Below, in pieces: positions 197 to 16,965 of a stretch of DNA of 64,000 bases. The DNA comes from Candidatus Poribacteria bacterium (lineage in GTDB: Bacteria > Poribacteria > WGA-4E > WGA-3G), in NCBI GenBank assembly GCA_965198235.1, contig OZ240248.1:1280001-1344000 (forward strand), in the 5' to 3' direction. The notes under the pieces are model-generated. The model made no database searches. It was not told the origin of the DNA and saw nothing but the letters and a program-made list of their open reading frames with translations. Each line of letters begins with the position of its first letter. Position 1 is the stretch's first letter. The translations under genes were made by a program, and so were the position numbers.

Positions 197-721
197 ATGG
201 GCAAACGTATACATCACCTTCGGGAAGTCAGTGAAGCAGAAGTCTCACAACTAAGGATCCTGTCTAACTCACAGACAGACTCGTATCGGAGTGTGCAGCG
301 CGCCAAGTTGATAGTCAGCATGATTGATGATGACACACTGACAGCCTCTAAAGCCGCAAAGCAAGTTGGTTTCAAATCAGAGGTTTCCGGTGCGTATTGG
401 GTCAATCGGTTCAACGAAGAAGGTGTCAAAGGTCTTTCGGATAAACCGCGAAGTGGCAAACCGCAGACGCATTCAATGCGAGTGCGGAGTCAACTCATTG
501 ATTTAGCGATGCGCAAACCTCGTCGGCTAGGTTATCCCTTCGAGGTGTGGACGCTGAAACGACTGCAAAGTGCCTTCAAGGAAAGAGAAGGGGTTCATCT
601 CTCGGATTCGACGATATGGGAGTGGTTGAAAAACGAGGGGTTGCGTTGGAAGCGTCAACAGAGCTGGTTTGGTGATGCCGAAAAACACGACGAGGCGTTT
701 GTAGAAAAAAGGGGGCGATAA
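197..721 (+). CDS. IS630 transposase, N-terminal HTH part (joined to the downstream ORF by a -1 shift)
   Basis: Motifs [20 protein letters not shown] and WTLKRL; A6G5 run at 705-715 just before the stop. Confidence 0.85.
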
Positions 722-774
722 TTGAGGCGTATACCAAGCGACCCCCTCAGACGCGTGTCATTTGTATTGACGAG

Positions 775-1338
775 ATGGGTCCGATAGCCGTGAAAACGTA
801 TCGGGGTGAGGTCTGGCAACCGGGTTTGAATCGTGCGACTTTTGAGCCGGACTACGGACGTAGAGGGAAAGTGTGGGTGCATGGCGCATTTGAACCGGCA
901 ACAGGTCAAGCGGAGATCGTGCTATCGCCTCGCAGAGACACAGCGAGTCATATTCAACTCATTGAGAAAGTGATAGATAAGTTTGCCTGCGAGAGGTGGT
1001 TACTCATTGAAGACAATCTTTCGACACATCACAGTCGTGATGTGAAGACAGCTTTATTAGCGTGGCCGGAGGTGCGGGTGCAGTTTATTCCGAAATATGC
1101 GTGTTGGTTGAACTTAATAGAACCTTGGTGGAAACAGTTGAGGTCTTTGGCATTGAAAGGTAGGCGATTTGAGACGCTGGATGAGTTGACCGATGCGCTC
1201 AACGGTGCCGTTTGTTGGTGGAATGCGCATAAATACCCTTACCGGTGGAAGAAAGAGCCGCAACAGCAACCCAGCTACAAGTTAGGTGCTTATGGGACTA
1301 GCATCGAAAAAAATATAACTCAACAACTTAGCGAGTGA
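775..1338 (+). CDS. IS630 transposase, DDE catalytic part
   Basis: DNLSTH and [14 protein letters not shown] motifs; the -1 frame is open from ~706 and carries the first catalytic Asp (VICIDE) upstream of the ATG. Confidence 0.85.
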
Positions 1339-2339: not shown

Positions 2340-3059
2340 TTAGGGGTTACTTCCCTTTAGGAGCAGTCTTAGAAATTCATCCTCATTGAAGTGACATTCT
2401 TTGTACTTCTTGCCGCTTCGACACGAACACGATCTGTTCAGATAATGTTTTATAGGTTCAACGTCGTTGAAGTGACATCTTTTGTACTTCTTGCCACTAC
2501 CACAAGGACATAAGTCGTTTCTACCGAGATTGGACTTCGCGTAATTGATCATTTCAGCAAAGTACTCTTTGATCCCTTCGGCACCATGCGAGTACTCTTC
2601 CCAATGGTCATTGCTACTTATATCAGTTCCAAATTTTTCCACGTAAGAAAGACGGTAAAGAAATGGAATCACGCGTTCGTGAAAGAAGGGTTCAATTCTA
2701 AAGGTTCGGTTATCGGGGGATTTAATACCTAGGCAACAACTATTATCCTCCGGATTGATGTGCAAATCAATAATCTCACTATTACAATTTTCAGCGATTT
2801 CTTGATACCTTTTGCCGACTTCATACACTTTCGGCCATCCGTTCATATCTAAGTCGCCTAAGCAAATCTCAACTTCGTAAACGTCGCGAATCAAGAAATC
2901 CATTTCATCAGCAAGATTACCAATTATTACTTCCTGTGATTTGTCATCGTACGCAGCACAGAAATCGAGTTCACCTACGATTTTTTGGGATTTTTCGTCG
3001 TATTGTAGGTTAGGAAAATGCACTTTTAACCATTGGATTTCATCATTGTTGATCTTCAT
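2340..3059 (-). CDS. CBASS-associated E2 (UBC-like) protein with two SEC-C Zn motifs
   Basis: PKVYE...HINPEDNSCCL (E2-like His/Cys), EYSHG, RNDLCPCGSGKKYKRCH plus a second CSCRSGKKYKECH; ATG 7 nt after the CD-NTase stop. Confidence 0.7.
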   Translation of the reverse strand: MKINNDEIQWLKVHFPNLQYDEKSQKIVGELDFCAAYDDKSQEVIIGNLADEMDFLIRDVYEVEICLGDLDMNGWPKVYEVGKRYQEIAENCNSEIIDLHINPEDNSCCLGIKSPDNRTFRIEPFFHERVIPFLYRLSYVEKFGTDISSNDHWEEYSHGAEGIKEYFAEMINYAKSNLGRNDLCPCGSGKKYKRCHFNDVEPIKHYLNRSCSCRSGKKYKECHFNEDEFLRLLLKGSNP

Positions 3060-3066
3060 AGCAAAA

Positions 3067-4035
3067 TCACCTTGCGTATAACTTCGGAGCACTTACTATT
3101 ACCGGAGCAGATTTCTTATTCCCGTTATCGTCTTTAAGTTCTCCGAAATTCTCACCAAACAACTTTCTCCACTTTCTGACGCTGGTATTGTGATCTTTGG
3201 CATCAAAAGCTTCGTTTATCTTAGAGTTGTAAAGATCGAACATTTCCCGGAAATGACGATATTTGTCTTGGTCCCAATGTCTGGTGAAACTTTCTGTGGA
3301 TAGGACTGGATTGCAAATTTCGGGCATTGAGATATTAGCCTGCAAAAAATTGTTTATCCGGTTTGAAATCGTTTTTAAAGACGTTGGAATGTCCTTAAAA
3401 TCTTCGCCCCATTCGTCACTGGAATAAACGCTGTTCCCAATGAGCGTGGTCAGGAGGATTGATTTCACGGAAAAGTTTCCTTTATGGTCACGAAGAAATT
3501 TTAACAACCGCGTATCCCGCTTTAGGTTTCCATTGGTGATTCTCGTTTTCTCGTTGAACCAATCTCTATAACCGGTGCCGTCGGTGAGTTCAAATTTATT
3601 TTCCTTGTTATTGCATATAAAATACTCTTCCTCTTGCGTAAGCCAATTCTGTTGTGTAATACATGGCACAAGATCTAGGTGAAAGTCGCCGGCATAATCG
3701 ATATAGACACATCTGGTTCTTCTATGTACCTTATCCTTATAATTGTCGTTTCCTTTCAAACAATCATAGACATCATTGATGTAGTCCTTCGGTTCTTTCT
3801 CCTCATCGTACGCCATGTACAAGAGTAGATCTGCGTCATATTCACGGGTGCCGACCGGTTTGATGATTGTTTTCAAACCGTAAGATCCTTGTCGTTCCGT
3901 TTTTTCGTATAAATCTAAATTTCCGCTCAGGAACGTATCCACAGCTGAGGAACTACTATCCAATCTTTGAAGTCTCGTTGGATTGAGGTTAACCTCTTCG
4001 GAAAGGAAATCTTGGAAATACGTTATATGCTTCAT
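3067..4035 (-). CDS. CD-NTase 2 (cGAS/DncV-like SMODS nucleotidyltransferase), intact
   Basis: QGSY...EYDAD and FHLDLVP catalytic motifs, SILLTTL, NPVLSTESF; AGGAG Shine-Dalgarno. Confidence 0.88.
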   Translation of the reverse strand: MKHITYFQDFLSEEVNLNPTRLQRLDSSSSAVDTFLSGNLDLYEKTERQGSYGLKTIIKPVGTREYDADLLLYMAYDEEKEPKDYINDVYDCLKGNDNYKDKVHRRTRCVYIDYAGDFHLDLVPCITQQNWLTQEEEYFICNNKENKFELTDGTGYRDWFNEKTRITNGNLKRDTRLLKFLRDHKGNFSVKSILLTTLIGNSVYSSDEWGEDFKDIPTSLKTISNRINNFLQANISMPEICNPVLSTESFTRHWDQDKYRHFREMFDLYNSKINEAFDAKDHNTSVRKWRKLFGENFGELKDDNGNKKSAPVIVSAPKLYAR

Positions 4036-4133
4036 TGGTCTATTTCTCCTTGTCTATCAGACTGAATAAAAAAATTAAAAATTCACATAAAATCTGTCGC
4101 TATCCGATTTTTGGATGTTAACGGGGCTAATTT

Positions 4134-5078
4134 TCATTTGTGCAATTTGTGAAAAGGCTTAAATGATTCAGCAGGATTACCCAAAAAAACCTCGCGAAGT
4201 TTAGGCAACTCATGGCGCGCTTGAAAAGCCCCCATACCTTTCAAGGAGTCAATTTCCTCTATTCCATCCAAACTAAATTTTCCTTCGGACACGTCTTCGT
4301 CAACTCTGATAACATTATCATGTCCTGCAAGAAGTTGTGCTGTTCCGAAAGACGCACTGGATTGGGCATGCATGAATACGTCAAAAAGCTTGAATGCCCA
4401 GTATGGTTTACCGAGTGGAGTTCTTCTTCCTTTGTTAACATTAAGTGGCTCGGTCGTGCAACCTAAACTCAAGACCTTCAGAGAATTCCTCGGCCAGTCA
4501 AGCACTGTAATTGCCTCAACAACAGCCATCCCTACGGGATTATTTGCCCATATGCCTCCATCTATCAAAGGGATTCCAACGGACGACTGATGAGTGGGAA
4601 AGTAAGTTGGAGCAGCTGCCGTTGCCAAAGCTACATCAACTACCCTTTCCTTATAGTCCATTTCTAATCGTGGATGATGAGCTGTTTTGTAGATGTAAAC
4701 TTTGCCATTTTCGAGATTTAACGACGGAATGACAAGTCGTTTTTTGCTATCACCTAATTTCTTATCACCAAAACAGGTTTCTAATGCCTTTTGAAGCGGG
4801 GCACTACTGTACTTGGTAGTACCCGGCCACCTGAACCAACGGTTTCCGTTGGTTCCACCAAAGATGACGGGACCAAATTCTTCGTAAAATGTCAATATTT
4901 CCTTAGCGGATAATCCCAATCCGAGCCCCAAAGCGATAATTCCACCTGTAGAGGTGCCGACGATCAGATCGAAATAATCTGCTATATTGCCTTCGATTGA
5001 ATTATCAACAGTAGCGAGAAAAGATGCTGGGCATACACCCTTAATCCCTCCCCCGTCGATTGTTAGGATACGTTTCAT
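4134..5078 (-). CDS. Patatin-like phospholipase CBASS effector (CapV/CapE type)
   Basis: DGGGIKG, GTSTG and DGG motifs; start set at ATG 5078 with AAGGAGG. Confidence 0.9.
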   Translation of the reverse strand: MKRILTIDGGGIKGVCPASFLATVDNSIEGNIADYFDLIVGTSTGGIIALGLGLGLSAKEILTFYEEFGPVIFGGTNGNRWFRWPGTTKYSSAPLQKALETCFGDKKLGDSKKRLVIPSLNLENGKVYIYKTAHHPRLEMDYKERVVDVALATAAAPTYFPTHQSSVGIPLIDGGIWANNPVGMAVVEAITVLDWPRNSLKVLSLGCTTEPLNVNKGRRTPLGKPYWAFKLFDVFMHAQSSASFGTAQLLAGHDNVIRVDEDVSEGKFSLDGIEEIDSLKGMGAFQARHELPKLREVFLGNPAESFKPFHKLHK

Positions 5079-5157
5079 TGTGCCCTCCTTAATTCCGAAA
5101 AAATTACTTTCTGTTTTTACTTGAAAGTTGTTTTCTGATACAATGTTTTCATAGGTA

Positions 5158-6327
5158 TTAGTTAATTTTGAGCACCCTTCTGAATCTATCCTGACTATCA
5201 TCATATTCATATACGAAAATCTCAGGATCTGATTTTGGCAGAAGAACCCGACCACACTCAACTGCAATTGGTGCTGGAACTGCTGGGATAATAGAGATTT
5301 GGCAAGAGTCTCCATGCGTAGATTGAATCTCGTTCAGCAATTTCCTGTATTCGCGACTGAACCCTTCTAACTGTTTACGGGATTTCAAAAAATATATAGA
5401 AGGTTCTTCAATAGTTATCTCATAAATGCTAAAACCTTCCGATTCCAACCTTTCATACCGATCACTATCAATTTTGTCACTTAGAGACAATACGACTGCA
5501 ACGTTTCTGCTGTTCTTATTGGTGTGATGAGAATTCACGACATAGCACGTTTCTGTGTCTTGTTCCTCCTCCGACCAAGACCAAGTTTGGTTTGTGTCAT
5601 CAATATTTCTGTGTGACTGGTATAAATCTGCTGGAACAGTATCACCTATGCACTTTCCCAAGAACATTAATAGAGGCATGGGACCAATGGCGAATACGGA
5701 AAGGTGTTTAATCTTTTTTTCATCTATTCCTTCCTCAAAGGACCACTTAACTTTTCGCTGAATCTCACTCGCAAAAGCCTGCCAGTACTCTGCATCGTTG
5801 TGACCATTAAAATTGTTCTTGGCGATACTAATTCCTTTTTCATCAGTCGGATATTTGGGAAACATTGCATTACGATATGCCTCGGGGTTAATCGGAACAA
5901 TTCTATCACCTATATTCACGGAGAATAATAGGACGGTAGATTTGTGAATATCCTCTGGATATCTGGTTTGAATTTCAATTCTAACCTCATGCTTCCATTT
6001 CCACTCGCTCAACAACTCTGGTGGATATTTGTCGGGTTTATCATCAATTTCCTTATGGCATTGTTGGCACAGCAGCATGAGATTAGAGAATTCAATTTGT
6101 AGATTCGCAGACTCTTCATTGCCTCTTGGACCGTCTTGACTCACGGGAATGATATGAGCTACCTCCCCAAAATTTCCATCGGTTAACGTCAGGTCATTAC
6201 GCCAAACAAGTTTGTTACAGCCACTAAATTCACAACGCCCTGCTGATTTCCCAAACAATTTCAACTTAGTATGTAGGGGAACATTTTTACGGGTAATCTT
6301 GGGTTTTACATTTCTTCTAATAGTCAT
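5158..6327 (-). CDS. HNH-SAVED nuclease CBASS effector (Cap5 type)
   Basis: GRCEFSGC...EVAHII...NLMLLCQQCHKEID HNH domain; SAVED-like HLSVFAIGPMPLLMFLG and PAVPAPIAVECGR. Confidence 0.88.
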   Translation of the reverse strand: MTIRRNVKPKITRKNVPLHTKLKLFGKSAGRCEFSGCNKLVWRNDLTLTDGNFGEVAHIIPVSQDGPRGNEESANLQIEFSNLMLLCQQCHKEIDDKPDKYPPELLSEWKWKHEVRIEIQTRYPEDIHKSTVLLFSVNIGDRIVPINPEAYRNAMFPKYPTDEKGISIAKNNFNGHNDAEYWQAFASEIQRKVKWSFEEGIDEKKIKHLSVFAIGPMPLLMFLGKCIGDTVPADLYQSHRNIDDTNQTWSWSEEEQDTETCYVVNSHHTNKNSRNVAVVLSLSDKIDSDRYERLESEGFSIYEITIEEPSIYFLKSRKQLEGFSREYRKLLNEIQSTHGDSCQISIIPAVPAPIAVECGRVLLPKSDPEIFVYEYDDSQDRFRRVLKIN

Positions 6328-6435: not shown

Positions 6436-7098
6436 CTAAGGTCTCCGACGAGTTATAGCATCAGGTGTTGTTTCCCTTATACGCCGTTTTACAGCTTCAA
6501 CTTGATCCATGTGGCATTTTTTATACTTTTTGTCGCTTCCACAAGGACATAAATCGTTTCTGTTAGGTTGGTGCTTTGCTAAATTTAACATTTCAACTTC
6601 ATATTCTGCCCGCCCTTTTTCGCCATGGGAATATTCGCCCCAAAGGTCATTACGGCTAGCGTCAATCCCAAATTTCTCTGTGTAAGAGAGTTGATAAAAA
6701 AATGGAATTACTAATTCAGGAAGGAAATCTTTGATGTGAAAATTCCTGTTACCCCCGTATTTGAGACTTAAGCAACACGTACTGTCATCTGGGTTAATGT
6801 GTAAATCTATGACTTCAACGTTGCACTTTTTTGCAATTTGATGATACCGTCCACCGACCTCATAAACCTTTGGCCATCCGTTTTCATCTAAATTGGCCAA
6901 GTGGATTTCAATCTCGAAAACGTCATAAATAAATCGCGCCATTTCTCTGGCATGGTCACCAATTCTCAACTCTCCTGACTCCCTATTATACGCTGTACGG
7001 ATGTCAAGTTCCCCTACGATTTTTGAGGAACTTGACTCGTATTGTAAACCCGGGAGATGTGACTCTAACCATTCGATTTCGTTAGCGGTTAGTTTCAT
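6436..7098 (-). CDS. CBASS-associated E2 (UBC-like) protein with SEC-C motif, paralog of 2340-3059
   Basis: Shares KIVGELD, NGWPKVYEVG, DLHINP-CCL, EYSHG and RNDLCPCGS with the paralog; ATG 8 nt after the CD-NTase 1 stop. Confidence 0.7.
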   Translation of the reverse strand: MKLTANEIEWLESHLPGLQYESSSSKIVGELDIRTAYNRESGELRIGDHAREMARFIYDVFEIEIHLANLDENGWPKVYEVGGRYHQIAKKCNVEVIDLHINPDDSTCCLSLKYGGNRNFHIKDFLPELVIPFFYQLSYTEKFGIDASRNDLWGEYSHGEKGRAEYEVEMLNLAKHQPNRNDLCPCGSDKKYKKCHMDQVEAVKRRIRETTPDAITRRRP

Positions 7099-7741
7099 GG
7101 CTGAAATTACCGTGCATAGGATTTACTGGGCACTACTGTTGCTGACAGAGTAGAGGCAGGACGACTTATTCTGTCGGGAACGCCTCGTAGTCCCTCATTG
7201 ATAGCTTGCTCACCCAAGCAAGGTTTTAGTGATTTTCCAACACTCTGAATATCACTCATGCCTAAAGCTTGGGTCAGATCATACTGTGCCTGCTTAAGCC
7301 ATTCCATGAAACACGTTTTTCGAATCGGATACTCTTGCCATTTGTCGGCGAAGTTTTCAAGTGGATTCACCGGATTACGTATAAGTGCCACATCATTGTT
7401 AGAATACTCAATATGACACGGCATTTCTGTGACAATCTTCAACAAAGCTTTTTGAAGATCTGCCTCATTGTCGTAGGCGTGGGCAGCGAGTGTTGTGATG
7501 ATGATAGAGATCGGTTTTGCATTTTTGTCATAGACTGATTGGTTCTTGTCAAACCAGATATCGCGGTGCCGCTTCAATATCTGAATTGACCGCTGAAGTG
7601 GGGTCTTCACTTTATATTCCGGAACATCATCAACCTGTCTTTGGATTAGGGACTTTTGAATGGCGTCGAACCTTGTTTGCATGCGACTTTGAAACCATTC
7701 TGTGAAGTGCATACGCTTATTTAGACCACAATTTCGCAAAG

Positions 7742-8581
7742 TTAAGATAAGGTTTGTCGTTGAAATTCCATAGGAGTCAAATACCCTAACGCCGAATGCG
7801 GGCGTTTCTGATGATACACCTGTGTGATAAAATGTCCGATGCGATCTCTCGCCTCGGTGATGCTTTGATAGTCATTGATGTGAACTTCTTCCTCTTTGAG
7901 CGTGCGAATGAGTCTTTCCGCATATCCGTTCTCCCAAGGCCGTCCGCGCTGTGCGACGGAAATCTCAACGCCATGTTCTTGGAGCGTTGTGATGTAGGCA
8001 CTTGAAAGATACTGCACGCCTTGATCGGAATGATGAATCTCAGGGACGCTGTGGCGTAATGCTTCTTTGAGCGGTTTGAGCGTCAGAGATTGGTTCAAGT
8101 GCTGACTGATCTGCCAAGCTTTGATGATTCGGGTGAAAACATCCATGAGCAGGCAGACATAGATGAAACGTCCATTGAGACGAACATAGGTAATATCAGA
8201 CACCCAGACCTGATCCTGACGAGAGACCTCAAGGGTTTCGAGCAGGTTGCTCCAAGGTTTTTCACCCTGAAGCGATTTTGTTGTTTGACACGCACGCTTG
8301 ACAGTGACCAAAAGATTCCTATTTTTCATCAATCGTGCGACGCGTCGGGTCCCAACGGTGTGTCCCATACGCAGTAGCAACTGCGTGATACGCCTATACC
8401 CGTATCTCGGATACCGTCCCGCAAGCGTCTCTATTTCCGATCGTAGCAGATCTTCGGACGGATCCTCTTGGGGGTGATAATAGAAACTGCTGCGGTTGAA
8501 ACCGAGTGTTTCACAAATCTCTCGCACGGAATACTCCTTGTGCAATGCCGAAATGAGGCTTCGCTTTTCGGATAAGGTCAT
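7742..8581 (-). CDS. IS3 transposase OrfB (rve integrase/DDE)
   Basis: YGYRRI, WVSDITY, HHSDQGVQY, ENGYAER, RPHSALGY; ATGA overlap with OrfA and an A8G slippery run at 8598-8606. Confidence 0.92.
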   Translation of the reverse strand: MTLSEKRSLISALHKEYSVREICETLGFNRSSFYYHPQEDPSEDLLRSEIETLAGRYPRYGYRRITQLLLRMGHTVGTRRVARLMKNRNLLVTVKRACQTTKSLQGEKPWSNLLETLEVSRQDQVWVSDITYVRLNGRFIYVCLLMDVFTRIIKAWQISQHLNQSLTLKPLKEALRHSVPEIHHSDQGVQYLSSAYITTLQEHGVEISVAQRGRPWENGYAERLIRTLKEEEVHINDYQSITEARDRIGHFITQVYHQKRPHSALGYLTPMEFQRQTLS

Positions 8582-8865
8582 TTCAACCAATCCAAAGCTT
8601 TTTTTTGGATGTCTAATGCCACGGTTAATCTCCCAACAAGCTGCTCAAGATGGGCGATACGCTTCTCGGAAACCTCACTCGACTGCTTATCAGTAGAGTC
8701 AAACAGCGTCGACGCATTTTCAAGCAACTGTCGCTTCCACTGTGAGAGTTGATTTTCGTTGAGATTATGTCGTCGACACACTTCTGCTTGGGAAGTCGCA
8801 CCGCTGAGGACTTCAAGAACAACTTCAGCTTTAAACTCAGGCGTGAATTTTCTTCGTTTCGCCAT
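8578..8865 (-). CDS. IS3 transposase OrfA (HTH)
   Basis: MAKRRKFTPEFKAEVV...QLSQWKRQ; AAGGAG Shine-Dalgarno. Confidence 0.9.
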   Translation of the reverse strand: MAKRRKFTPEFKAEVVLEVLSGATSQAEVCRRHNLNENQLSQWKRQLLENASTLFDSTDKQSSEVSEKRIAHLEQLVGRLTVALDIQKKALDWLK

Positions 8866-9502
8866 CGGATAACTCCTTTCTAATGAGATTGTATTGTAGC
8901 ACAATCTTCCTTTAGGGAGTGGTCTAAAAAACCGTAGGCAGTACACTGCATACCCTTTTGGATTACTATGGGGCCAATCAAGGTCGATCTTACAGTAGTT
9001 AGGTAGCGTATTATCCGTAATTGCAATTACTAAATCTGACCAGTTAGAGGGTGAGTAACCTCTTGATTTAAGGGATAGTTTGAATGGTTCAGCGTCTGGG
9101 ATCGCAGGCAATATATCCGCGTGGAACTGAGCACCATCTGCGTAATTCAGTGTCCAGCAGCGTCTGCTCTCTTCCGGTCGGGAATTCATGTTGTTAGCAT
9201 GGGCATAAGACTTGATTTCATGACCAACTAAATACTTTAGTCTTTCTTGGCTGACTTCAGTTTTTTGAAGGCTCAACTCGCTGACAAGGTCTATGTCATA
9301 CTCCTCAGCACCAGAAATGGGTTTTGTAACCGTGCCAATCAGAAAAGAACCTTGTGGATAAATATCAGGACTATAGCAAGTAACTATAGATTCATCCCGT
9401 TCGAGCCATGCACCAATGGATTCGTAGCGTTTTACGGCTTGTTCATAGTGATGTTCGGGGATGTCCAATGCTTCAGATATAGCCTCAAGTAGTGAGGTGA
9501 AA

Positions 9503-9598
9503 TTATACATGGGAGAATTCTCCTTCATTTTTAGGTTGGTTCGCGAGAGTGCGAACTCGATTATCATGAGTGGATTGGTTTCTACTTTGCCAGTTCAT
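9503..9598 (-). CDS. 31-aa leader ORF overlapping the CD-NTase 1 start
   Basis: AGGAGG (9606-9611) 7 nt before ATG; MNWQSRNQSTHDNRVRTLANQPKNEGEFSHV*; its last codons overlap ATG 9510. Confidence 0.45.
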   Translation of the reverse strand: MNWQSRNQSTHDNRVRTLANQPKNEGEFSHV

Positions 9599-9642: not shown

Positions 9643-9671
9643 ATAATACCATCAATTAATTCACATGTCAA
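9643..9671 (-). promoter_or_regulatory. Sigma70 promoter of the CBASS operon
   Basis: TTGACA-17 nt-TATTAT with TGn extension on the minus strand. Confidence 0.7.
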
Positions 9672-9914
9672 GGAAAATTTAAATTTTTACTACTTTTTCT
9701 CTGAAATACATATATTTTTAAATTTTTCACATATATATTAATTTTTAATGTATAGATGAAAATTATATTATTAATAATAGTCGATAATAAAACAGATGTG
9801 AAGAAATTAGGTAAATTCCGTAAAAATCGAACGTGTTTTTTGTCTTTACTTAAAAGTTTGTTTTCTGATATACTATATTTGCATGTGTATTATCATTGGG
9901 GAGGAACAACTGTC

Positions 9915-11153
9915 ATGAAATTAGGAGAGCGTCTTCGTCTCATTCGTAAAGAGAAAAAGTTGATCCTGAAGGATTTGGGTGAACTCGCGGATTTGTCTGT
10001 GCCTTATCTTTCGAGTATGGAGCGCGGTGTTGTTAATCCTTCTGTAGAAACCCTACAAAAGGTTGCCAAAGCTTATAATATGACAGTCCAAGACCTTTTT
10101 AGTGGTGTGGAAGAATTAGGAGAATTGATACATACTACGCATCCTACAGGATTTGAATCCTTTCTAAGGGACTTCGAGTCTAGTTATGGAATTATTAGTG
10201 ATGACTGGAAGGAATTGCTGCTGAAAATCAACTTTCGCGGCAGGCAGCCGTCCTCTCAAACGGAATGGCTTGAATTATATCTTTCTCTCAGACGAATTCT
10301 TTCACCTAAGGAGGAGAAGGTGAACAATCCGAAAAAGCATATTATCAAATTGGTTCAGGATACTGTCAGAGAATATAGTTCAACCCAGGTTCCTAATTTT
10401 GGCGAAATATGCACTGGCTTGGAATTAGATGTACAAGAAGCCTCGTTACCAGACGGGATAGACGGAATGCATAGAGGAAGGACAATTTTTATTAATTCCC
10501 GGATTAAGAATGAAGAGCGTAAGCGATTTACCCAATTTCATGAAGTCACGCATTATTTGATTGAGAAGGATGGAGATCTAATCTCTAATCTTCACGATAC
10601 TACTTGGAGCCAGGATGATGGATACGAAAGGCAGTTGGAACAACTTTGTAATATTGGTGCGGCTGAGTTTTTGATGCCTAGAAAGGTATTTGCGGGACTC
10701 TATAAAGAAAGGGAGTTTAATGTCGAACTGATACCATATGCTGCGCGTTACTTTGGGAGTTCGACAATAGCGACAACTATACAACTTGCTCAAGTTGCAC
10801 CAAATTCGTGCATTACTGCTGTTTGCGAATTAATACATAGCGATCCAGAATCGTCGCAAACTCGTTTTTCTAGCGCAAAGGATAGCTCCACCAAGCAAAA
10901 ATTGCATATAGCCTATTCTGCCTCGTCCCCCTCAACTGAATATTTGTTAGCAAAATGCACAGAAATTCCTGAAGACCACTTAATCAACCAAGCATTTTCG
11001 CAAACTCAACTAGTTGGAGGGGACAGTTACGTCCCTTTTCGGAGTGGCAAGAAAATGCCTTGTTACTGTGAAGCATTGGCAGATGGCGATAGGATTTATG
11101 TATTATTCCATTTGACACCTTCGCCAAATCCTAATCAAGGGACACTTTTTTGA
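9915..11153 (+). CDS. DdrO-like XRE repressor fused to an IrrE/PprI-like metalloprotease (CapH/CapP-like regulator)
   Basis: N-terminal MKLGERLR...SVPYLSSMERG.VNPSVETLQ...NFRGRQP...WLELYLSLRRIL resembles DdrO; then RFTQFHEVTH, EQLCNIGAAEFLMP and SYVPFRSGKKM as in IrrE; start at ATG 9915 (GGAGG), internal AAGGAGG-GTG at 10320. Confidence 0.85.
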   Translation: MKLGERLRLIRKEKKLILKDLGELADLSVPYLSSMERGVVNPSVETLQKVAKAYNMTVQDLFSGVEELGELIHTTHPTGFESFLRDFESSYGIISDDWKELLLKINFRGRQPSSQTEWLELYLSLRRILSPKEEKVNNPKKHIIKLVQDTVREYSSTQVPNFGEICTGLELDVQEASLPDGIDGMHRGRTIFINSRIKNEERKRFTQFHEVTHYLIEKDGDLISNLHDTTWSQDDGYERQLEQLCNIGAAEFLMPRKVFAGLYKEREFNVELIPYAARYFGSSTIATTIQLAQVAPNSCITAVCELIHSDPESSQTRFSSAKDSSTKQKLHIAYSASSPSTEYLLAKCTEIPEDHLINQAFSQTQLVGGDSYVPFRSGKKMPCYCEALADGDRIYVLFHLTPSPNPNQGTLF

Positions 11154-11259: not shown

Positions 11260-14217
11260 TTAATCAAGATACCAACTCGGGAAAGGAATACCCTTCAGTT
11301 TAAGCTTCGCTAATTCCGCGTCAAGATTGCACTTGCACTTCTTCTCACCTTGGATGCTTGGTTCTGCACAGAGCATTTCACGCAGCGTCTGCATGGATGC
11401 AAGAATACCTACATCTTTGATACCAAGCACCTCCGTCAGAATATCTGTATCCAATTCGTGTCGGATAGGGTCGTGATCACATTCATTGACTGGCAGCATC
11501 CGCTTATACTTTAACCGTTCAAAGAGGGCTTCAGCGTTTGCTAGCTGCTGATTGGAGAGTCGGCGAACATCCAGCGTTGGCAGTGTTTTTAATGTCTGCT
11601 GACGCAGCGTTCCACGCCCCATATCCTGTTTACTGCTATGTAACCAGTGGCAGAAAAAGCCAAATGTTGAATTGCACCAGAGGGTCCACGCAATTTCATG
11701 CCGCAGGTCATTGAGTAAAACATTTATCATTGAACGTACGCCAATGGAGGGTTCCTCAGTGAAGGAAGAAAGCATGGAGTTTGAAGTGAATCTCATATTG
11801 ATGTGGTAATGGGTCTTACTGTTGCAGTCTAAAGCGCGATTAACGATCGCGTTCTCATTTGAACGGGGGATCGCTGTTGCATTTGGTTCAGCCATCATTG
11901 ACCGCTGCAAGGGTGCCTCAACTTTCCATAGCGCAGGGTAGCCATCACTGTTCCGTTCATATCCCTTTACTATGATAAATGGACCGTTCTTTTTTCTGTA
12001 CAAATCTGCTGAGCCAACTTGTGCTATGTGTTGCACTTGACAAATATCAAGAGGGATAGGTTCTCTTTCCATAGGCAGATGCAGTGCTCCGGCCTTGAGC
12101 TTGTGTGCACTCTGTAGCAATGCCATTGATCGTGCCCGTGTTGCAACCCACGCAACACCATCTTTGATGGGACAGTCTAGTATCTGGCCACTCTTCGTGT
12201 TGCCAACGCTGATAATATTTCCTCCATTAGGGGCATCTTCGAGTTTTCGCGTGCCACTGCTCCGAGATATCCGATTTGCGATTTCCATTGCTTCAAGTGG
12301 TTTCTTGGGCCTCTGATTTAAGCAGACAAACGTGCCGCGTCCAGTATTTTCTCCTACGCCCTTTGTCGCAACGACGATGCATTCCGCCTTTTTTGTGTCT
12401 GCAGAGAATGCACAATCTGCAGCCTCTGCTTGTGCCATAGTTATCACAATAACATCGTGATATTCAGTTGCCCACATATCTCTAATTTTCTGTGTGATAG
12501 GTGATCTTAATACTGTCAACAGTAGAATGAAACCCATCGTCCCCCCATGCTTAAGTTTCTTGTCCGAGAGGTCAACAAAATTCGGAGCAAAGTCAGCAAT
12601 TCCATCGGATACTCTTCTATCTTTAAGTTTCAGTGCTGCCTGCATCATTTTCTGCTCTTCCTCAGAGCGGTCGCTACCTTGGAATGTAGATTTCGGTACA
12701 TCAGTGTTGCTATCTGATCCCCCTCTGGTAAACGGGGGATTTTGTATAACAATATCAAACTCAAAGTGTTGAAAAACTTGTTGGAATTTAACTACTGTGT
12801 TCTCTTTGCCGCCGATCTGTTCAGCATCCGTATCAAATAGTTTCACGTCGTCAAGCAATTCGAGGGAACCTATCGCATAACTACCGTCCTGCATAAGTCC
12901 ATAAGGTGCAGTCAGAATGCGGGTATCCGCTAGTTTGATATCCGCATACGTGCTGGCGAGAGCAGCTGCTGTCAAGTGTGTGGCATTCGGCATGACATCT
13001 GCACCGCCAATATTTTCCTTAAGCATCTTCTGGTGGATGTCCCTTCCGTTTCCACCTTGCTGTTCATATAGGGATAAAATGCGTTGGTATACGCCGTTGA
13101 GGAGTGCCCCAGTTCCACAAGCAAAATCCGCTACTTTCGGGAGTTTACCCTTAGGCAATTCAGGCATTACAAGGGTTGACAACAACGTCGCGCTTTCTGG
13201 CAGCGTATAGTTTGCCTTAACATATTTTCTATCGGTGATTAACTTTTGAAACACTATGCCCGCAAGTTCGTGGATTTGCGCGATACCGGTGTCAACGAGG
13301 TCTTTAGCTGCCTTGCACAGCAACTTTAAGATATGTTTAACCAGTTTGTCGTCTGTCGCAAGTGCCTTAACGAGTTCACGGGCATCCTCAAAGATAGGGC
13401 GGTAGTTGACTTTAAGAATAGTGTTCCAGTCTTCTATAACATCGGAATAGTCAATCGTAGAAAGGAGTTGACGGAGTGAACGGACAGATGTCATTTCTGC
13501 CTTGCCCGCGAGCGAACTCTGGAAAACGAAGGCATCGGTGATAATCAGTGCCGCCATGCGGAGGGTTTGTGTATTGAGTTTTTCTTTTTCGTCATTTTCA
13601 TCTTTAGAGAAAACCTCTTGGTGTAGGATTGACTCGATTTTCGTCCCGATGGCACGGTGATCAGTAATAGCGTTTTCAAGTAGATGGGCTGCCCTGTTGA
13701 TATTAAGTTCCATGTCCTCCGCTGCTTGTTCCAACTGTGAGTTGGGTATTGCACCGACGTGTAACGCATTGGCAATGTCTCCCACTGTGCCAGTTGTCCA
13801 CCCGTTTTCTGGGAAGTGTCCGACGGTATCCCCGAGAGTACTGACGAGTTTGTACTGTAAGTCATCCGCCTCATGGAGTTGTGGAGTAATGTCCCGTCCT
13901 GACATTCTCTTAAAACGATCAGGATATAGGATTGCCATGACATTGTTGAGGGTTTTCGCTGAGATATAGTATTCTGCTTCAAGTTCATAGACGAGTCTTG
14001 TTTCGGCTTGTTTGATAAGGTTTTTAGCATTGGTGGTAGTAGCGAATTTGGCTTCTATACCAATGGCTTCTCTACCGCGTTCAATCACGAGGGCATCAAG
14101 TTCGCTGTTGCCTTTGATGAAGGCATGAACAGCCGTTTCGACTTCCCATCCGTGGCGCATGTTTCGTAGGATATTAACCAAGTGATTTGTAATTGTCGTT
14201 TCGTGTTGATTCGGCAT
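11260..14217 (-). CDS. Type IIG-like restriction-modification enzyme (N6-adenine methyltransferase with N-terminal nuclease-like domain)
   Basis: DFACGTG (motif I), QNPPF (motif IV), N-terminal LD...IEAK PD-(D/E)xK-like motif; 985 aa. Confidence 0.75.
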   Translation of the reverse strand: MPNQHETTITNHLVNILRNMRHGWEVETAVHAFIKGNSELDALVIERGREAIGIEAKFATTTNAKNLIKQAETRLVYELEAEYYISAKTLNNVMAILYPDRFKRMSGRDITPQLHEADDLQYKLVSTLGDTVGHFPENGWTTGTVGDIANALHVGAIPNSQLEQAAEDMELNINRAAHLLENAITDHRAIGTKIESILHQEVFSKDENDEKEKLNTQTLRMAALIITDAFVFQSSLAGKAEMTSVRSLRQLLSTIDYSDVIEDWNTILKVNYRPIFEDARELVKALATDDKLVKHILKLLCKAAKDLVDTGIAQIHELAGIVFQKLITDRKYVKANYTLPESATLLSTLVMPELPKGKLPKVADFACGTGALLNGVYQRILSLYEQQGGNGRDIHQKMLKENIGGADVMPNATHLTAAALASTYADIKLADTRILTAPYGLMQDGSYAIGSLELLDDVKLFDTDAEQIGGKENTVVKFQQVFQHFEFDIVIQNPPFTRGGSDSNTDVPKSTFQGSDRSEEEQKMMQAALKLKDRRVSDGIADFAPNFVDLSDKKLKHGGTMGFILLLTVLRSPITQKIRDMWATEYHDVIVITMAQAEAADCAFSADTKKAECIVVATKGVGENTGRGTFVCLNQRPKKPLEAMEIANRISRSSGTRKLEDAPNGGNIISVGNTKSGQILDCPIKDGVAWVATRARSMALLQSAHKLKAGALHLPMEREPIPLDICQVQHIAQVGSADLYRKKNGPFIIVKGYERNSDGYPALWKVEAPLQRSMMAEPNATAIPRSNENAIVNRALDCNSKTHYHINMRFTSNSMLSSFTEEPSIGVRSMINVLLNDLRHEIAWTLWCNSTFGFFCHWLHSSKQDMGRGTLRQQTLKTLPTLDVRRLSNQQLANAEALFERLKYKRMLPVNECDHDPIRHELDTDILTEVLGIKDVGILASMQTLREMLCAEPSIQGEKKCKCNLDAELAKLKLKGIPFPSWYLD

Positions 14218-14396: not shown

Positions 14397-14771
14397 CTAC
14401 CAAATTTTCACAAGGGTAGCAACGATTTGCAAAACCTGAACAACGGTTTCATCTGGCATATCCCCTGCGTGCCGCGCGCGTCTTTCCCACCAATCAAGGC
14501 TTTTGATATGATCTGCTTGGATGACTCCGTCAAGTTCAATAATTCTGGTAAGGTCCTTGCTACGGATTTCTACTCCTGGTGGGATCGGAACATCAAGATC
14601 TGCGCGGTAGGGTTTCCGGCTGGTCGTGATTGGACACATAATTGCCAACCACAGTCTGCGATTATAGATTTCTTCAGAGAGTACAAGAGCCGGACGCTCT
14701 TTTGCTTGCTCATGTCCAGCGTGGGGCTCAAAGTCAATCCACACAATATCACCGTGTCGTGGAACATACAT
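14397..14771 (-). CDS. mazF: PemK/MazF family toxin
   Basis: YVPRHGDIVWIDFEPHAGHEQAKERPALVLS...CPITT...ADHIKSLDW. Confidence 0.9.
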   Translation of the reverse strand: MYVPRHGDIVWIDFEPHAGHEQAKERPALVLSEEIYNRRLWLAIMCPITTSRKPYRADLDVPIPPGVEIRSKDLTRIIELDGVIQADHIKSLDWWERRARHAGDMPDETVVQVLQIVATLVKIW

Positions 14772-14779
14772 AGTGGCGT

Positions 14780-15019
14780 TTACCAAACCTCCCTGCCCAC
14801 TGGCGGTCCGGTGTCTGTCTCTTCTGAAAGGCCGGGTTTTCGGACTTCAACTTTAGGTTCCGGTACCTTGGCTAAAAGTTCTTCTATTGTATAATTCGGA
14901 CGCGGTATAGGTCTACGCCTTTCTTGGTTACAAGGTGTTATCTCAACCTTCTTACCACGCAATTTAGATTCTGGAGTTTTGGCAGAGAATTTCTCGGGCG
15001 TACAGTCTGTTTTTTTCAC
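14780..15019 (-). CDS. MazE-like antitoxin with an atypical N-terminus
   Basis: C-terminal YTIEELLAKV...DTGPPVGREVW typical of MazE; AAGGAG before GTG 15019; no recognisable AbrB WGNS motif. Confidence 0.6.
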   Translation of the reverse strand: MKKTDCTPEKFSAKTPESKLRGKKVEITPCNQERRRPIPRPNYTIEELLAKVPEPKVEVRKPGLSEETDTGPPVGREVW

Positions 15020-15063
15020 AAGGTGGCTCCTTAACGATCGAAATGAACAAAACACTTGAGTAA

Positions 15064-15627
15064 TTATAATTTGAATGTTGTATATTCGTCTGCTTCAACA
15101 CCCATCAACTCCCGGTAGGTTTCAAGTGGAATGAATGGCGTTTCGCCTTCTTGTCGATCCGCATCAAAGTAGTCGAAACAGACTTCCCATAAAACGAGGG
15201 CGTATTTACTGGTGAACTGGTTTTGCAGCCGTAGGTTCAACTTGGCGTAGACGCGCGGGTTGTGAAGTCTCAGCCGCAATGTGTGTGGGAACTGATAGAA
15301 GCAGATACCATCGTGAATACGAACCTCTGCTAAGAGATGCGCTACACCCCACTCTTGCTTTTTGTCTTTGCCGAGAATGTTCCATTTCACTTTGAAATCA
15401 GCAATAGATTCTAATATCTCTTTTAGGTAGTCATCGTTCTTGCTATCGAAACCAAGCTTCGCTGTCAATTCAACCATACTCACGCGATGGATTTCTTTAT
15501 CTGGAAGTTCCTTGTAGGCGTTGGCGAGCAGGACGTTCCATGCCCGGCGTTGTAGGAGCGACATCTTGCTCTGGACATGAATCGCCGGACTTGCTTTGAT
15601 AACATCACTAATTTCTGTTAAATTCAT
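15064..15627 (-). pseudogene. Rep_3/RepB plasmid replication initiator, 3'-truncated
   Basis: SLLQRRAWNVLL, NPRVYAKLNL, FTSKYALVLWE, YRELMGV...Y..FK; stops at the start of the second winged-helix recognition helix. Confidence 0.75.
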
Positions 15628-15871: not shown

Positions 15872-16965
15872 TTAGGACTTACGCAATAATGTTTGACATA
15901 GACTCCGCAAAACACTAATATGGTGTTTGAGGAGGTAAATAAAGATGGTTAGCCCCACACGTCTGGATTACTGTCAGTATCTACTCAGCACGCCTATTCA
16001 CTATACGTTGACTCATTTCGCAGACCCCTGTGAGAGATTTAGTCATGATCAGATAAACCGTTATCTCGCAGGTGACCGTCTCAGACCGCGCACCATCTGG
16101 GAACATGTCAAATCTGATGTCGTGCAAACCGTCGATGGATATATCATTTTTGATGACACCGTCTTAGACAAACGGTATGCCAAAGAGATAGCACTTGCGC
16201 AGAAACAATATAGTGGCAACGCGGGTGGCATCATAAATGGTATAGGCATTGTCACGTGCGTCTACGTCAATCCAGTGTTAGACCGGTATTGGCTAATTGA
16301 TTACCGTATCTACGATAAACAAGGCGATGGTAAATCAAAGTTGGATCCTGTTCGAGAGATGCTCTCAGTCTTGGTAAACTCGCGTAAAGTTGCTTTCTCG
16401 ACGGTGTTGATGGACTCGTGGTATGCCAGCAAATCGCTGCTGCTCTACATTGAAAGTCTTGATAAGACGTATTATGTTCCGTTGAAATCCAATCGTCTTG
16501 TTGACGATTCTAAGGGCAGCAAGCCCTATCAACGCATTGATACTTTACACTGGACAGATGCTGAACAGCAATCGGGTAAACGCGTCAAACTCCATAAGTT
16601 TCCGAAGCATCAGAAGGTGAAAGTCTTCCGGGTAGCGTCTTCTCGACGCACGGATTATATTGCCACCAACGACTTGAGTCAATCCGATGTGTCCGTCGTC
16701 CGACAGGTGTGCGATGTCCGCTGGAAGATTGAACAACTTCACCGTGAATCGAAACAGTTGACAGGACTTGAAAAATGCCAATGTCGTCTCCCCCGTATTG
16801 TTCGCAATCACATCGCATCTACGTTTCTCGTTTGGGTTCATCTGATGCGTCAGGCTTATGAAAAAGGTCAAACGCTTTATCAGGTCAAACATGGAATGCT
16901 CTCTGAATATCTCTGTCAACAACTTAAATCACCTATGCTAAAAATTGGGAATGCGTAAGTCCTAA
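15872..16965 (+). mobile_element. IS701-family insertion sequence
   Basis: Perfect 14-bp inverted repeats ttaggacttacgca / tgcgtaagtcctaa around a DDE transposase; no clear target duplication. Confidence 0.85.
15945..16958 (+). CDS. IS701 family transposase
   Basis: IIFDDTVLDK, QYSGN, VLMDSWY, RWKIEQLHRESKQLTG, CQCR. Confidence 0.9.
   Translation: MVSPTRLDYCQYLLSTPIHYTLTHFADPCERFSHDQINRYLAGDRLRPRTIWEHVKSDVVQTVDGYIIFDDTVLDKRYAKEIALAQKQYSGNAGGIINGIGIVTCVYVNPVLDRYWLIDYRIYDKQGDGKSKLDPVREMLSVLVNSRKVAFSTVLMDSWYASKSLLLYIESLDKTYYVPLKSNRLVDDSKGSKPYQRIDTLHWTDAEQQSGKRVKLHKFPKHQKVKVFRVASSRRTDYIATNDLSQSDVSVVRQVCDVRWKIEQLHRESKQLTGLEKCQCRLPRIVRNHIASTFLVWVHLMRQAYEKGQTLYQVKHGMLSEYLCQQLKSPMLKIGNA

Follow-up and report, generated by a model that had tools for sequence, protein, structure and literature searches.

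In a 64,000-nucleotide (nt) stretch of a Candidatus Poribacteria genome (assembly GCA_965198235.1, contig OZ240248.1, positions 1,280,001 to 1,344,000; hereafter the window, whose own numbering we use throughout), the gene at 9915-11153 on the plus strand is an uninterrupted fusion of a DdrO/CapH-like repressor and an IrrE/CapP-like metallopeptidase. We consider it probable (about 0.7) that the fusion is a CapH/CapP-type transcriptional switch of the DdrO/IrrE family, naturally joined into one chain, that controls the adjoining anti-phage operon, a cyclic-oligonucleotide-based anti-phage signalling system (CBASS). The fusion is not novel in kind because passages of Lau et al. 2022 already count 15 CBASS systems with an apparent capH–capP fusion; the fused type has been known since then and no new principle is involved, and the fusion is less new than a preliminary description of this DNA, made from the letters alone, assumed. 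Relative to those passages, the additions made here are modest: repeated single-step switching between fused and split forms in one bacterial group, and a conserved internal start.

The open reading frame (ORF) encodes 412 amino acids with no internal stop, from the ATG at 9915 to the TGA at 11151-11153. The frame is listed from 9756, and the ATG at 9915, with GGAGG about 10 nt upstream, is the credible start. A search of solved structures matched residues 1-130 to residues 1-129 of the 129-residue DdrO of Deinococcus deserti (6rnx, E = 2.2e-30), residues 183-404 to PprI of Deinococcus geothermalis (8slm, E = 3.5e-30) and residues 188-401 to IrrE of D. deserti (3dte, E = 9.5e-28). The preliminary description had proposed that a DdrO-like repressor and an IrrE-like protease, both complete, are joined, with cleavage motif and HExxH intact, and these matches of about 1e-30 to both, together with the aligned motifs, bear it out. 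The loop INFRGRQP pairs with IELRGKRP of DdrO in the 6rnx alignment, which places F107-R108 opposite L106-R107; the PprI and IrrE alignments place HEVTH opposite HEISH and SYVPFRSGKKMP opposite SYVPFRSGRRMP. Identity to Deinococcus DdrO is 46-49%, and 64% in the helix-turn-helix (HTH) domain. Pfam finds HTH_3 at residues 7-61 and Peptidase_M78 at 176-287, and the PADLOC models for capP and capH match at 1.8e-24 and 2.6e-8. The parts of the gene are as follows.

9915 to 10112, plus strand: XRE helix-turn-helix DNA-binding domain (residues 1-66); HTH_3; DdrO N-terminal domain 6rnz at E = 7e-19, with a Foldseek template-modelling (TM) score of 0.96 and 64% identity to 6rnz.
10152 to 10304, plus strand: DdrO-type C-terminal dimerisation domain (residues 80-130, with helices at 80-91, 96-104 and 115-129), from alignment to 6rnx and 6ro6 and AlphaFold2 (AF2) secondary structure.
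10233 to 10238, plus strand: predicted cleavage site F107-R108, opposite L106-R107 of DdrO in the alignment; the cut in CapH falls at F82|R83.
10320 to 11150, plus strand: IrrE/CapP-like part (residues 136-412), comprising peptidase, middle helical region and GAF-like domain; 8slm, 3dte, capP 1.8e-24, Foldseek TM 0.74 to 8slm.
10539 to 10553, plus strand: HEVTH zinc-binding and catalytic motif (H209, E210, H213), invariant, like E242, in 89 of 89 aligned sequences.
10800 to 11129, plus strand: GAF-like C-terminal domain (about residues 296-405), which includes SYVPFRSGKKMP, from the PprI/IrrE alignment and AF2 beta strands.

Judged from these alignments, the required catalytic and cleavage residues are all conserved in the fusion; in the cleavage loop, all 26 sequences compared keep R108, G109 and P112. 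The stretch between H213 and E242 aligns without gaps to IrrE and contains no cysteine. The AF2 model, built on 89 sequences, has a mean predicted local distance difference test (pLDDT) score of 81 and a predicted TM (pTM) score of 0.63, and its best Foldseek matches are PprI/IrrE (8slm, TM 0.74 on the target) and DdrO, followed by CapP (7t5t, TM 0.51) and the Mycobacterium tuberculosis HTH regulator 6cyy. The genome carries a single copy of the fused module.

The surroundings of the gene, overlooked in the preliminary description, alter how the fusion is to be read. Passages of Lau et al. 2022 locate capH and capP upstream of the defence operon on the opposite strand, and here a CBASS operon lies on the minus strand, divergent from the fused gene:

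8947 to 9567, minus strand: N-terminal half of the CD-NTase, first gene of the CBASS operon, which reads into orfA of an IS3 element (PADLOC Cyclase 8e-70); homologues in relatives are intact.
7707 to 8946, minus strand: IS3-family element (orfA, orfB) of 1240 base pairs (bp) inside the CD-NTase gene (Pfam rve and HTH_Tnp_1; terminal inverted repeats).
7107 to 7706, minus strand: C-terminal half of the CD-NTase (PADLOC Cyclase 1e-59).
6436 to 7098, minus strand: CBASS E2-like protein with a SEC-C motif (PADLOC E2 1.1e-26; Pfam SEC-C).
5158 to 6327, minus strand: HNH-SAVED endonuclease effector, Cap5-like (Pfam SAVED 2.5e-45, HNH; PADLOC 9e-122).

We fetched 15 kilobases around the modules of 20 relatives. 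The module, whether fused or split, stands directly divergent from CBASS genes in 16 of these 20 loci; the genes are homologous to those of the window and include versions with an intact CD-NTase. Other defence genes recognised by PADLOC, an AbiTii-like gene and a gene for an AriA/PtuA-like ATPase, are faced in one locus each, and the genes faced in the remaining two belong to no recognised defence family. The divergent operon, taken with the capP and capH matches, therefore points to a CapH/CapP-type defence regulator rather than to the control of a general damage regulon.

The junction between the two halves is real. Contigs from four runs (X1, X2, X7 and the metatranscriptome X6) were compared with the locus. 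One X1 contig spans 9920-10561 with zero differences, X1 being possibly the source sample; X2 contigs span 10079-10368, one copy being identical and another carrying 26 substitutions; and an X7 contig spans 9500-10553 with 18 substitutions. A stop or indel near 10300-10320 had been named as the thing to look for, and contigs from these three studies (X1, X2 and X7) cross 10300-10322 free of insertions and deletions; the sole indel in the four runs is a G inserted after 9902 in X7, upstream of the start codon. Nor are all close homologues two separate genes. In a collection of 5.8 billion proteins, 54 of the 120 matches listed carry both halves, from 92% down to 55% identity, and the remaining 66 are proteins of 260-299 amino acids with the protease part only. 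When 1.84 billion cluster representatives were searched, the query's own cluster was the only one of the best 150 matches to cover both halves.

Fused and split forms both occur within the window's own genus. Across 176 genomes of the phylum, with the IrrE-like part counted at E of 1e-88 or better, 27 carry that part: 9 in a fused gene, 1 in a frame split only by a TAG, and 17 in two adjacent genes in overlapping frames. A pattern scan of species-representative genomes gave 20 loci, all 20 from genomes titled Candidatus Poribacteria. In most split loci the protease gene starts within the last codons of the repressor gene in a different frame, as in the junction ..AAGGAGGACAAAAGTGAATGA.. (loci L011 and L028), which has a GTG start, a TGA stop and an overlap of 8 nt. 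The fused junction of the window type, ..AAGGAGGAGAAGGTGAAC.., has one base fewer between the Shine–Dalgarno sequence and the GTG, and the shorter spacer therefore places both genes in one frame. A second route is seen in another family, in which the same codon is CAG in a fused locus (L008) and TAG in a split one (L009), and a third fused type (L010) has a longer linker.

The protease part was placed on a tree of 114 rows, comprising 26 genome loci, 50 of the 54 fused database matches (four partial ones were omitted) and 38 of the 66 split ones, sampled down the ranking to limit size. Parsimony counts 13 changes between the fused and split labels on this tree, at least 8 of them required by well-supported branches; for database proteins the label 'split' reflects length and a methionine at the aligned start rather than DNA, and the direction of each change is not readable from an unrooted tree. 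Such repeated switching among lineages makes the fused and split forms appear functionally interchangeable. Among fused genes, the ratio of nonsynonymous to synonymous divergence (dN/dS) is 0.05-0.31 in both halves in all 55 computable comparisons, at dS up to about 0.7-2.8. Both halves are therefore under purifying selection, and the fusion is neither new nor decaying. Recent loss of a ddrO stop codon, offered earlier as an alternative, does not fit this lineage: in its split relatives the overlapping genes are read in two frames, the spacer of the fused type is one base shorter, and the fused state has been kept across genes as divergent as these.

The fused gene retains what seems to be the old start of its protease half:

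10308 to 10322, plus strand: internal Shine–Dalgarno sequence AAGGAGG (10308-10314), 5 nt, and in-frame GTG (10320-10322, codon 136), the ancestral start of the protease gene.

Its position and frame are as first described, and the stand-alone proteases of relatives begin exactly at the position of V136. In one alignment of 51 fused proteins, the query included, a start-capable residue (V, L or M) occupies the ancestral protease start in 51 of 51, and the linker residues beside it vary. Linkers of the '..EEK-V..' type have V in 28, L in 2 and M in 1; those of the '..xMQF/xMRL..' and '..IMNHM..' types have M in 17 of 17 and 3 of 3, respectively. At the DNA level, GGAGG lies 4-5 nt ahead of an in-frame GTG in six of eight fused loci. 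For the other fused linker types ('..RRT.EMQF..' and '..IIDRKAIMNHM..'), a scan of species-representative genomes gave only the 20 known loci, and metagenome contigs gave one unrelated weak match. Because the internal ribosome-binding site and GTG coincide with the start of the stand-alone protease gene in relatives, a free protease isoform (residues 136-412) made from the retained start is plausible; of the earlier proposal of such an isoform, the correspondence of the two starts holds and the isoform itself keeps that grade.

We hypothesize, by homology with the characterised systems, that the switch would work as follows. Two promoter-like sites and a candidate operator lie in the region between the fused gene and the CBASS operon:

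9845 to 9874, plus strand: regulator promoter-like site, TTTACT, 18 nt, TATACT with TG extension; sigma-70-like, in a block conserved in the aligned upstream regions of 21 loci.
9643 to 9671, minus strand: CBASS operon promoter-like site, TTGACA, 17 nt, TATTAT with TG (11 of 12); sigma-70-like, with TGTCAAG conserved in relatives.
9836 to 9855, unstranded: candidate operator, a partly palindromic block TTTTTTGTCTTTACTTAAAA over the regulator -35; the best palindrome-constrained motif, in the homologous place in most of the 21 loci, a recurrence that is not independent because the loci are homologous.

The DdrO-like part would dimerise through its C-terminal helices and bind between the divergent promoters (9643-9874), shutting off both the CBASS operon and its own gene. 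Single-stranded DNA (ssDNA) arising from DNA damage or phage infection would then activate the IrrE-like metallopeptidase part, which would cut the repressor loop at F107|R108; dimerisation and DNA binding would be lost and CBASS expressed. The fusion itself may have arisen from an overlapping gene pair by a small change at the junction, here the shorter spacer, with the old ribosome-binding site and GTG of the protease kept and free protease possibly also made.

According to passages of Lau et al. 2022, CapH represses, and CapP cuts CapH at F82|R83 when ssDNA is present. The fusion resembles CapH/CapP in having an XRE repressor with a C-terminal oligomerisation domain, a (predicted) cut before arginine, a zinc peptidase that carries a GAF-like domain, placement upstream of a CBASS operon and divergent from it, and precedents for the one-polypeptide state in that group. 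Unlike CapP, it has no cysteine at the switch position, and unlike the CapP/CapH pair it is far closer to Deinococcus DdrO/IrrE (PprI), with which it shares full-length similarity in both parts, a cleavage loop between the two final helices, HExxH, a GAF-like domain and the lack of a cysteine switch (passages of PMC6868357 and PMC12828697). In published passages on the Deinococcus pair, IrrE, stimulated by ssDNA, cuts the DdrO loop before the last helix, and the DdrO dimer is held by the last helices. There the two genes are separate, and the DNA-repair regulon that they govern on the chromosome is addressed through RDRM, a 17-bp palindrome close to the promoters (de Groot et al. 2019, PMC6868357; Reuzeau et al. 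2026, PMC12828697), in contrast to the single polypeptide, accessory island and CBASS neighbour found here. ImmR/ImmA of ICEBs1 and the phage-type XRE/COG2856 pairs are alike in that a repressor is cut by a dedicated M78 peptidase after DNA damage; they are, however, two proteins that control the induction of mobile elements, and ImmA is described, in the passages concerned, as having no GAF-like domain.

Several observations weigh against assignment of the fusion as a CapH/CapP-type switch of the neighbouring operon. The solved structures of CapP and CapH (7t5t and 7t5u) match only at E of about 8e-4, against about 1e-30 for Deinococcus DdrO and IrrE. Control of the fused enzyme may differ from that of Escherichia coli CapP because the sequence is closer to DdrO/IrrE and has no switch cysteine, and passages of a 2026 preprint describe IrrE as less tightly controlled than CapP; the missing cysteine does not exclude membership of the CapP group because published passages give the cysteine-switch loop to only a subset of CapP proteins. 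CBASS is absent beside the module in 4 of the 20 relatives' loci, and in the window the adjacent CD-NTase is broken, so that the switch may currently control little. Metatranscriptome contigs (X6) identical to the gene at 9897-10306, at 10339-10585 and beyond are a weak hint of expression, but they stop at 10306 and resume at 10339, none bridges the junction, and carry-over of DNA is possible. For the internal start, the GTG codon found in 7 of 7 fused loci of the V type is by itself not significant because 3 of 9 invariant valine columns are equally uniform in codon use.

The operator is a further weakness. No operator was definable from repeats in the window, from exact-arm palindromes in the 21 upstream regions compared with mononucleotide shuffles, or from a palindrome-constrained expectation–maximisation motif search; all that emerged was a T-tract/A-tract dyad covering the -35 of the regulator itself, with phased AAATT repeats. 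Among open-access papers and preprints we found no experiment on this protein or on any fused CapH–CapP or DdrO–IrrE, and none on CBASS regulators of Poribacteria.

The strongest competitor of the switch proposed above is the preliminary description taken in its strong form: the chain would be a one-component sensor that obligatorily cleaves itself within one molecule, a metalloprotease counterpart of LexA/CI autoproteolysis that would differ from the split pair in, for example, its fixed 1:1 stoichiometry and concentration-independent kinetics. Published passages describe IrrE as monomeric, forming a 1:1 heterodimer with a DdrO monomer and cutting monomers rather than dimers, and AlphaFold 3 models of CapP–CapH, again as given in passages, pack the last helix of the repressor on the peptidase domain. 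In the AF2 model of the fusion, a gap of only about 9 residues separates helix 115-129 from the peptidase part's first helix (139-154), and because of this short tether an intramolecular enzyme–substrate complex is plausible; the fused state is, moreover, held by purifying selection. Nothing computed, however, shows docking in cis. Beta bridges of F107 and R110 in the full-length model were considered as a sign of it and rejected, because they appear equally in a model of residues 1-135 and therefore carry no information on contact with the peptidase; a two-copy complex prediction of the full protein scored 0.14, with the mark at 0.42, and weighs neither way. That lineages so often change between the fused and split states, and that the internal start is retained, suggests a like function for both forms, with trans cleavage possible, and we regard obligate self-cleavage as doubtful.

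If self-cleaving, the fusion would parallel LexA and lambda CI in function but not in family: a single-chain repressor whose DNA-binding and dimerisation functions are parted by damage-triggered proteolysis, carried out by a metallopeptidase with ssDNA as its direct trigger rather than by a Ser-Lys dyad that RecA filaments stimulate, in an unrelated fold. A broader form, in which a single-chain, ssDNA-triggered, self-cleaving repressor and a free protease come from the same mRNA and single-base switching between one-gene and two-gene forms tunes CBASS activation, is tentative.

CapH/CapP and DdrO/IrrE are model systems of protease-controlled, RecA-independent damage sensing, and the complex of enzyme and substrate in them is transient and known so far from models only. 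With the two naturally joined in one covalent chain, cis and trans cleavage become directly testable, and there is a route to capturing that complex; if the single-chain, self-cleaving reading is true, a tether with a dead site (E210Q) would trap the transient IrrE–DdrO or CapP–CapH complex for structural work. Close relatives that differ by one base between fused and split states offer a ready way to compare how leaky and how inducible a toxic abortive-infection system is at different stoichiometries. The loci also document CBASS regulation modules in uncultivated sponge symbionts.

The very close match of the two halves to Deinococcus DdrO (at the identities given above) and IrrE might instead mark a master regulator of a general DNA-damage regulon of the radiation or desiccation type, with the CBASS position incidental. 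This is improbable. The module is present in only the 27 of 176 phylum genomes noted above, as a single copy in this one; defence genes adjoin it in 18 of 20 relatives' loci; it sits among insertion sequence (IS) elements, a MazF gene and a Rep3 gene; and a LexA-type DNA-binding domain is encoded in the genome as well (in a 240-amino-acid frame). The neighbours in relatives, the sparse distribution and the LexA-type domain therefore make the module much more likely an accessory regulator of a defence island than the general damage regulator of the cell. Of the RecA-independent, one-component damage sensor put forward in the preliminary description, the role of a general damage regulator is not supported, on the same grounds and because the gene is divergent from a CBASS operon, and the one-component sensor stays the tentative reading given above.

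Less probable still is an RmrA-like antitoxin of the RosmerTA toxin–antitoxin defence system. RmrA, described in passages of Ernits et al. 2023 (PMC10440598) as a protease-domain antitoxin that often has an N-terminal HTH, and HTH-M78 fusions such as 6cyy of M. tuberculosis share the broad architecture of an HTH and an M78 (ImmA-type) domain in one chain, and PADLOC RmrA models match weakly (best E = 2.1e-12, mostly through the HTH). The similarity to RmrA and 6cyy is nevertheless weak, and nothing was seen in them of the full DdrO-type dimerisation domain with cleavage loop that the fusion possesses; the capP model fits far better (1.8e-24); and no partner toxin gene shares an operon with it, the downstream neighbour being convergent and the upstream one divergent. 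That assembly or sequencing produced the fusion as an artefact, or that a disabling mutation recently joined two genes, would suit the two-gene state of same-genus relatives and a difference of a single base within an A-rich spacer, but is barely credible given the indel-free contigs from three studies, the recurrence of both halves down to 55% identity and the constraint on both halves.

Further features of the promoter region concern its length. Between the divergent promoters lie about 175 nt in the window and in the three relatives closest to it, compared with about 55 nt elsewhere. The extra AT-rich stretch, within 9672-9844, contains two repeats, a direct one of 26 nt (9696-9748) and an inverted one of 23 nt (9719-9767), and AAATT-type repeats with a phase of 9-10 nt lie just upstream of the regulator -35.

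The CBASS genes are part of a larger array, in which two sets lie in tandem on one strand (2340-6327) and of which the second is:

2340 to 5315, minus strand: second CBASS set, with patatin phospholipase (4134-5315), cyclase (3067-4035) and E2 (2340-3092), from Pfam and PADLOC.

As called, the long ORF of the patatin gene runs 158 nt into the end of the HNH-SAVED gene; relatives align only from about residue 76-81, which makes a true start near 5080 probable. The order of CBASS genes varies among close relatives (for example, in genome G156). The IS3 element has one 100% identical copy and two 94% identical copies elsewhere in the genome, the identical copy implying a recent insertion, and the CD-NTase's N-terminal half is in frame with orfA, giving a 329-amino-acid ORF (8578-9567).

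Some relatives depart from the fused and two-gene arrangements or combine lineages. The protease part of one database protein of 411 amino acids (P0010) is sister to that of the window on the tree, but its repressor part ('EFLAGMKYRGKQ..KLHDPKK') fits a different lineage (the P0022 and P0026 type); the two origins suggest recombination near the junction. At L028 (genome G130), a DdrO-like gene 82% identical to the repressor part of the window is followed by about five protease codons and then by unrelated sequence, and looks like a repressor-only remnant. A 406-amino-acid protein with a DdrO-like C-terminal part (P0240) was considered as a fusion in reverse order and rejected, as it has no M78 domain. 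A plasmid collection yielded only Deinococcus ddrO paralogues and two weak ImmA/IrrE matches, and a phage collection yielded no matches.

Downstream of the regulator and convergent with it, 11260-14217 on the minus strand encodes a 985-amino-acid Eco57I/PglX-like protein of the N6-methyltransferase type. A homologue occupies the same place in 7 of the 20 relatives' loci, three of them without CBASS upstream, and the protein may be a component of this island or of another system. On its flanks the island has a gene for a MazF/PemK-like toxin, one for a Rep3-type replication initiator and two more transposase genes (14397-15627 (-), 197-1338 (+) and 15945-16958 (+)), which suggests that it is of integrated plasmid-like or mobile origin.

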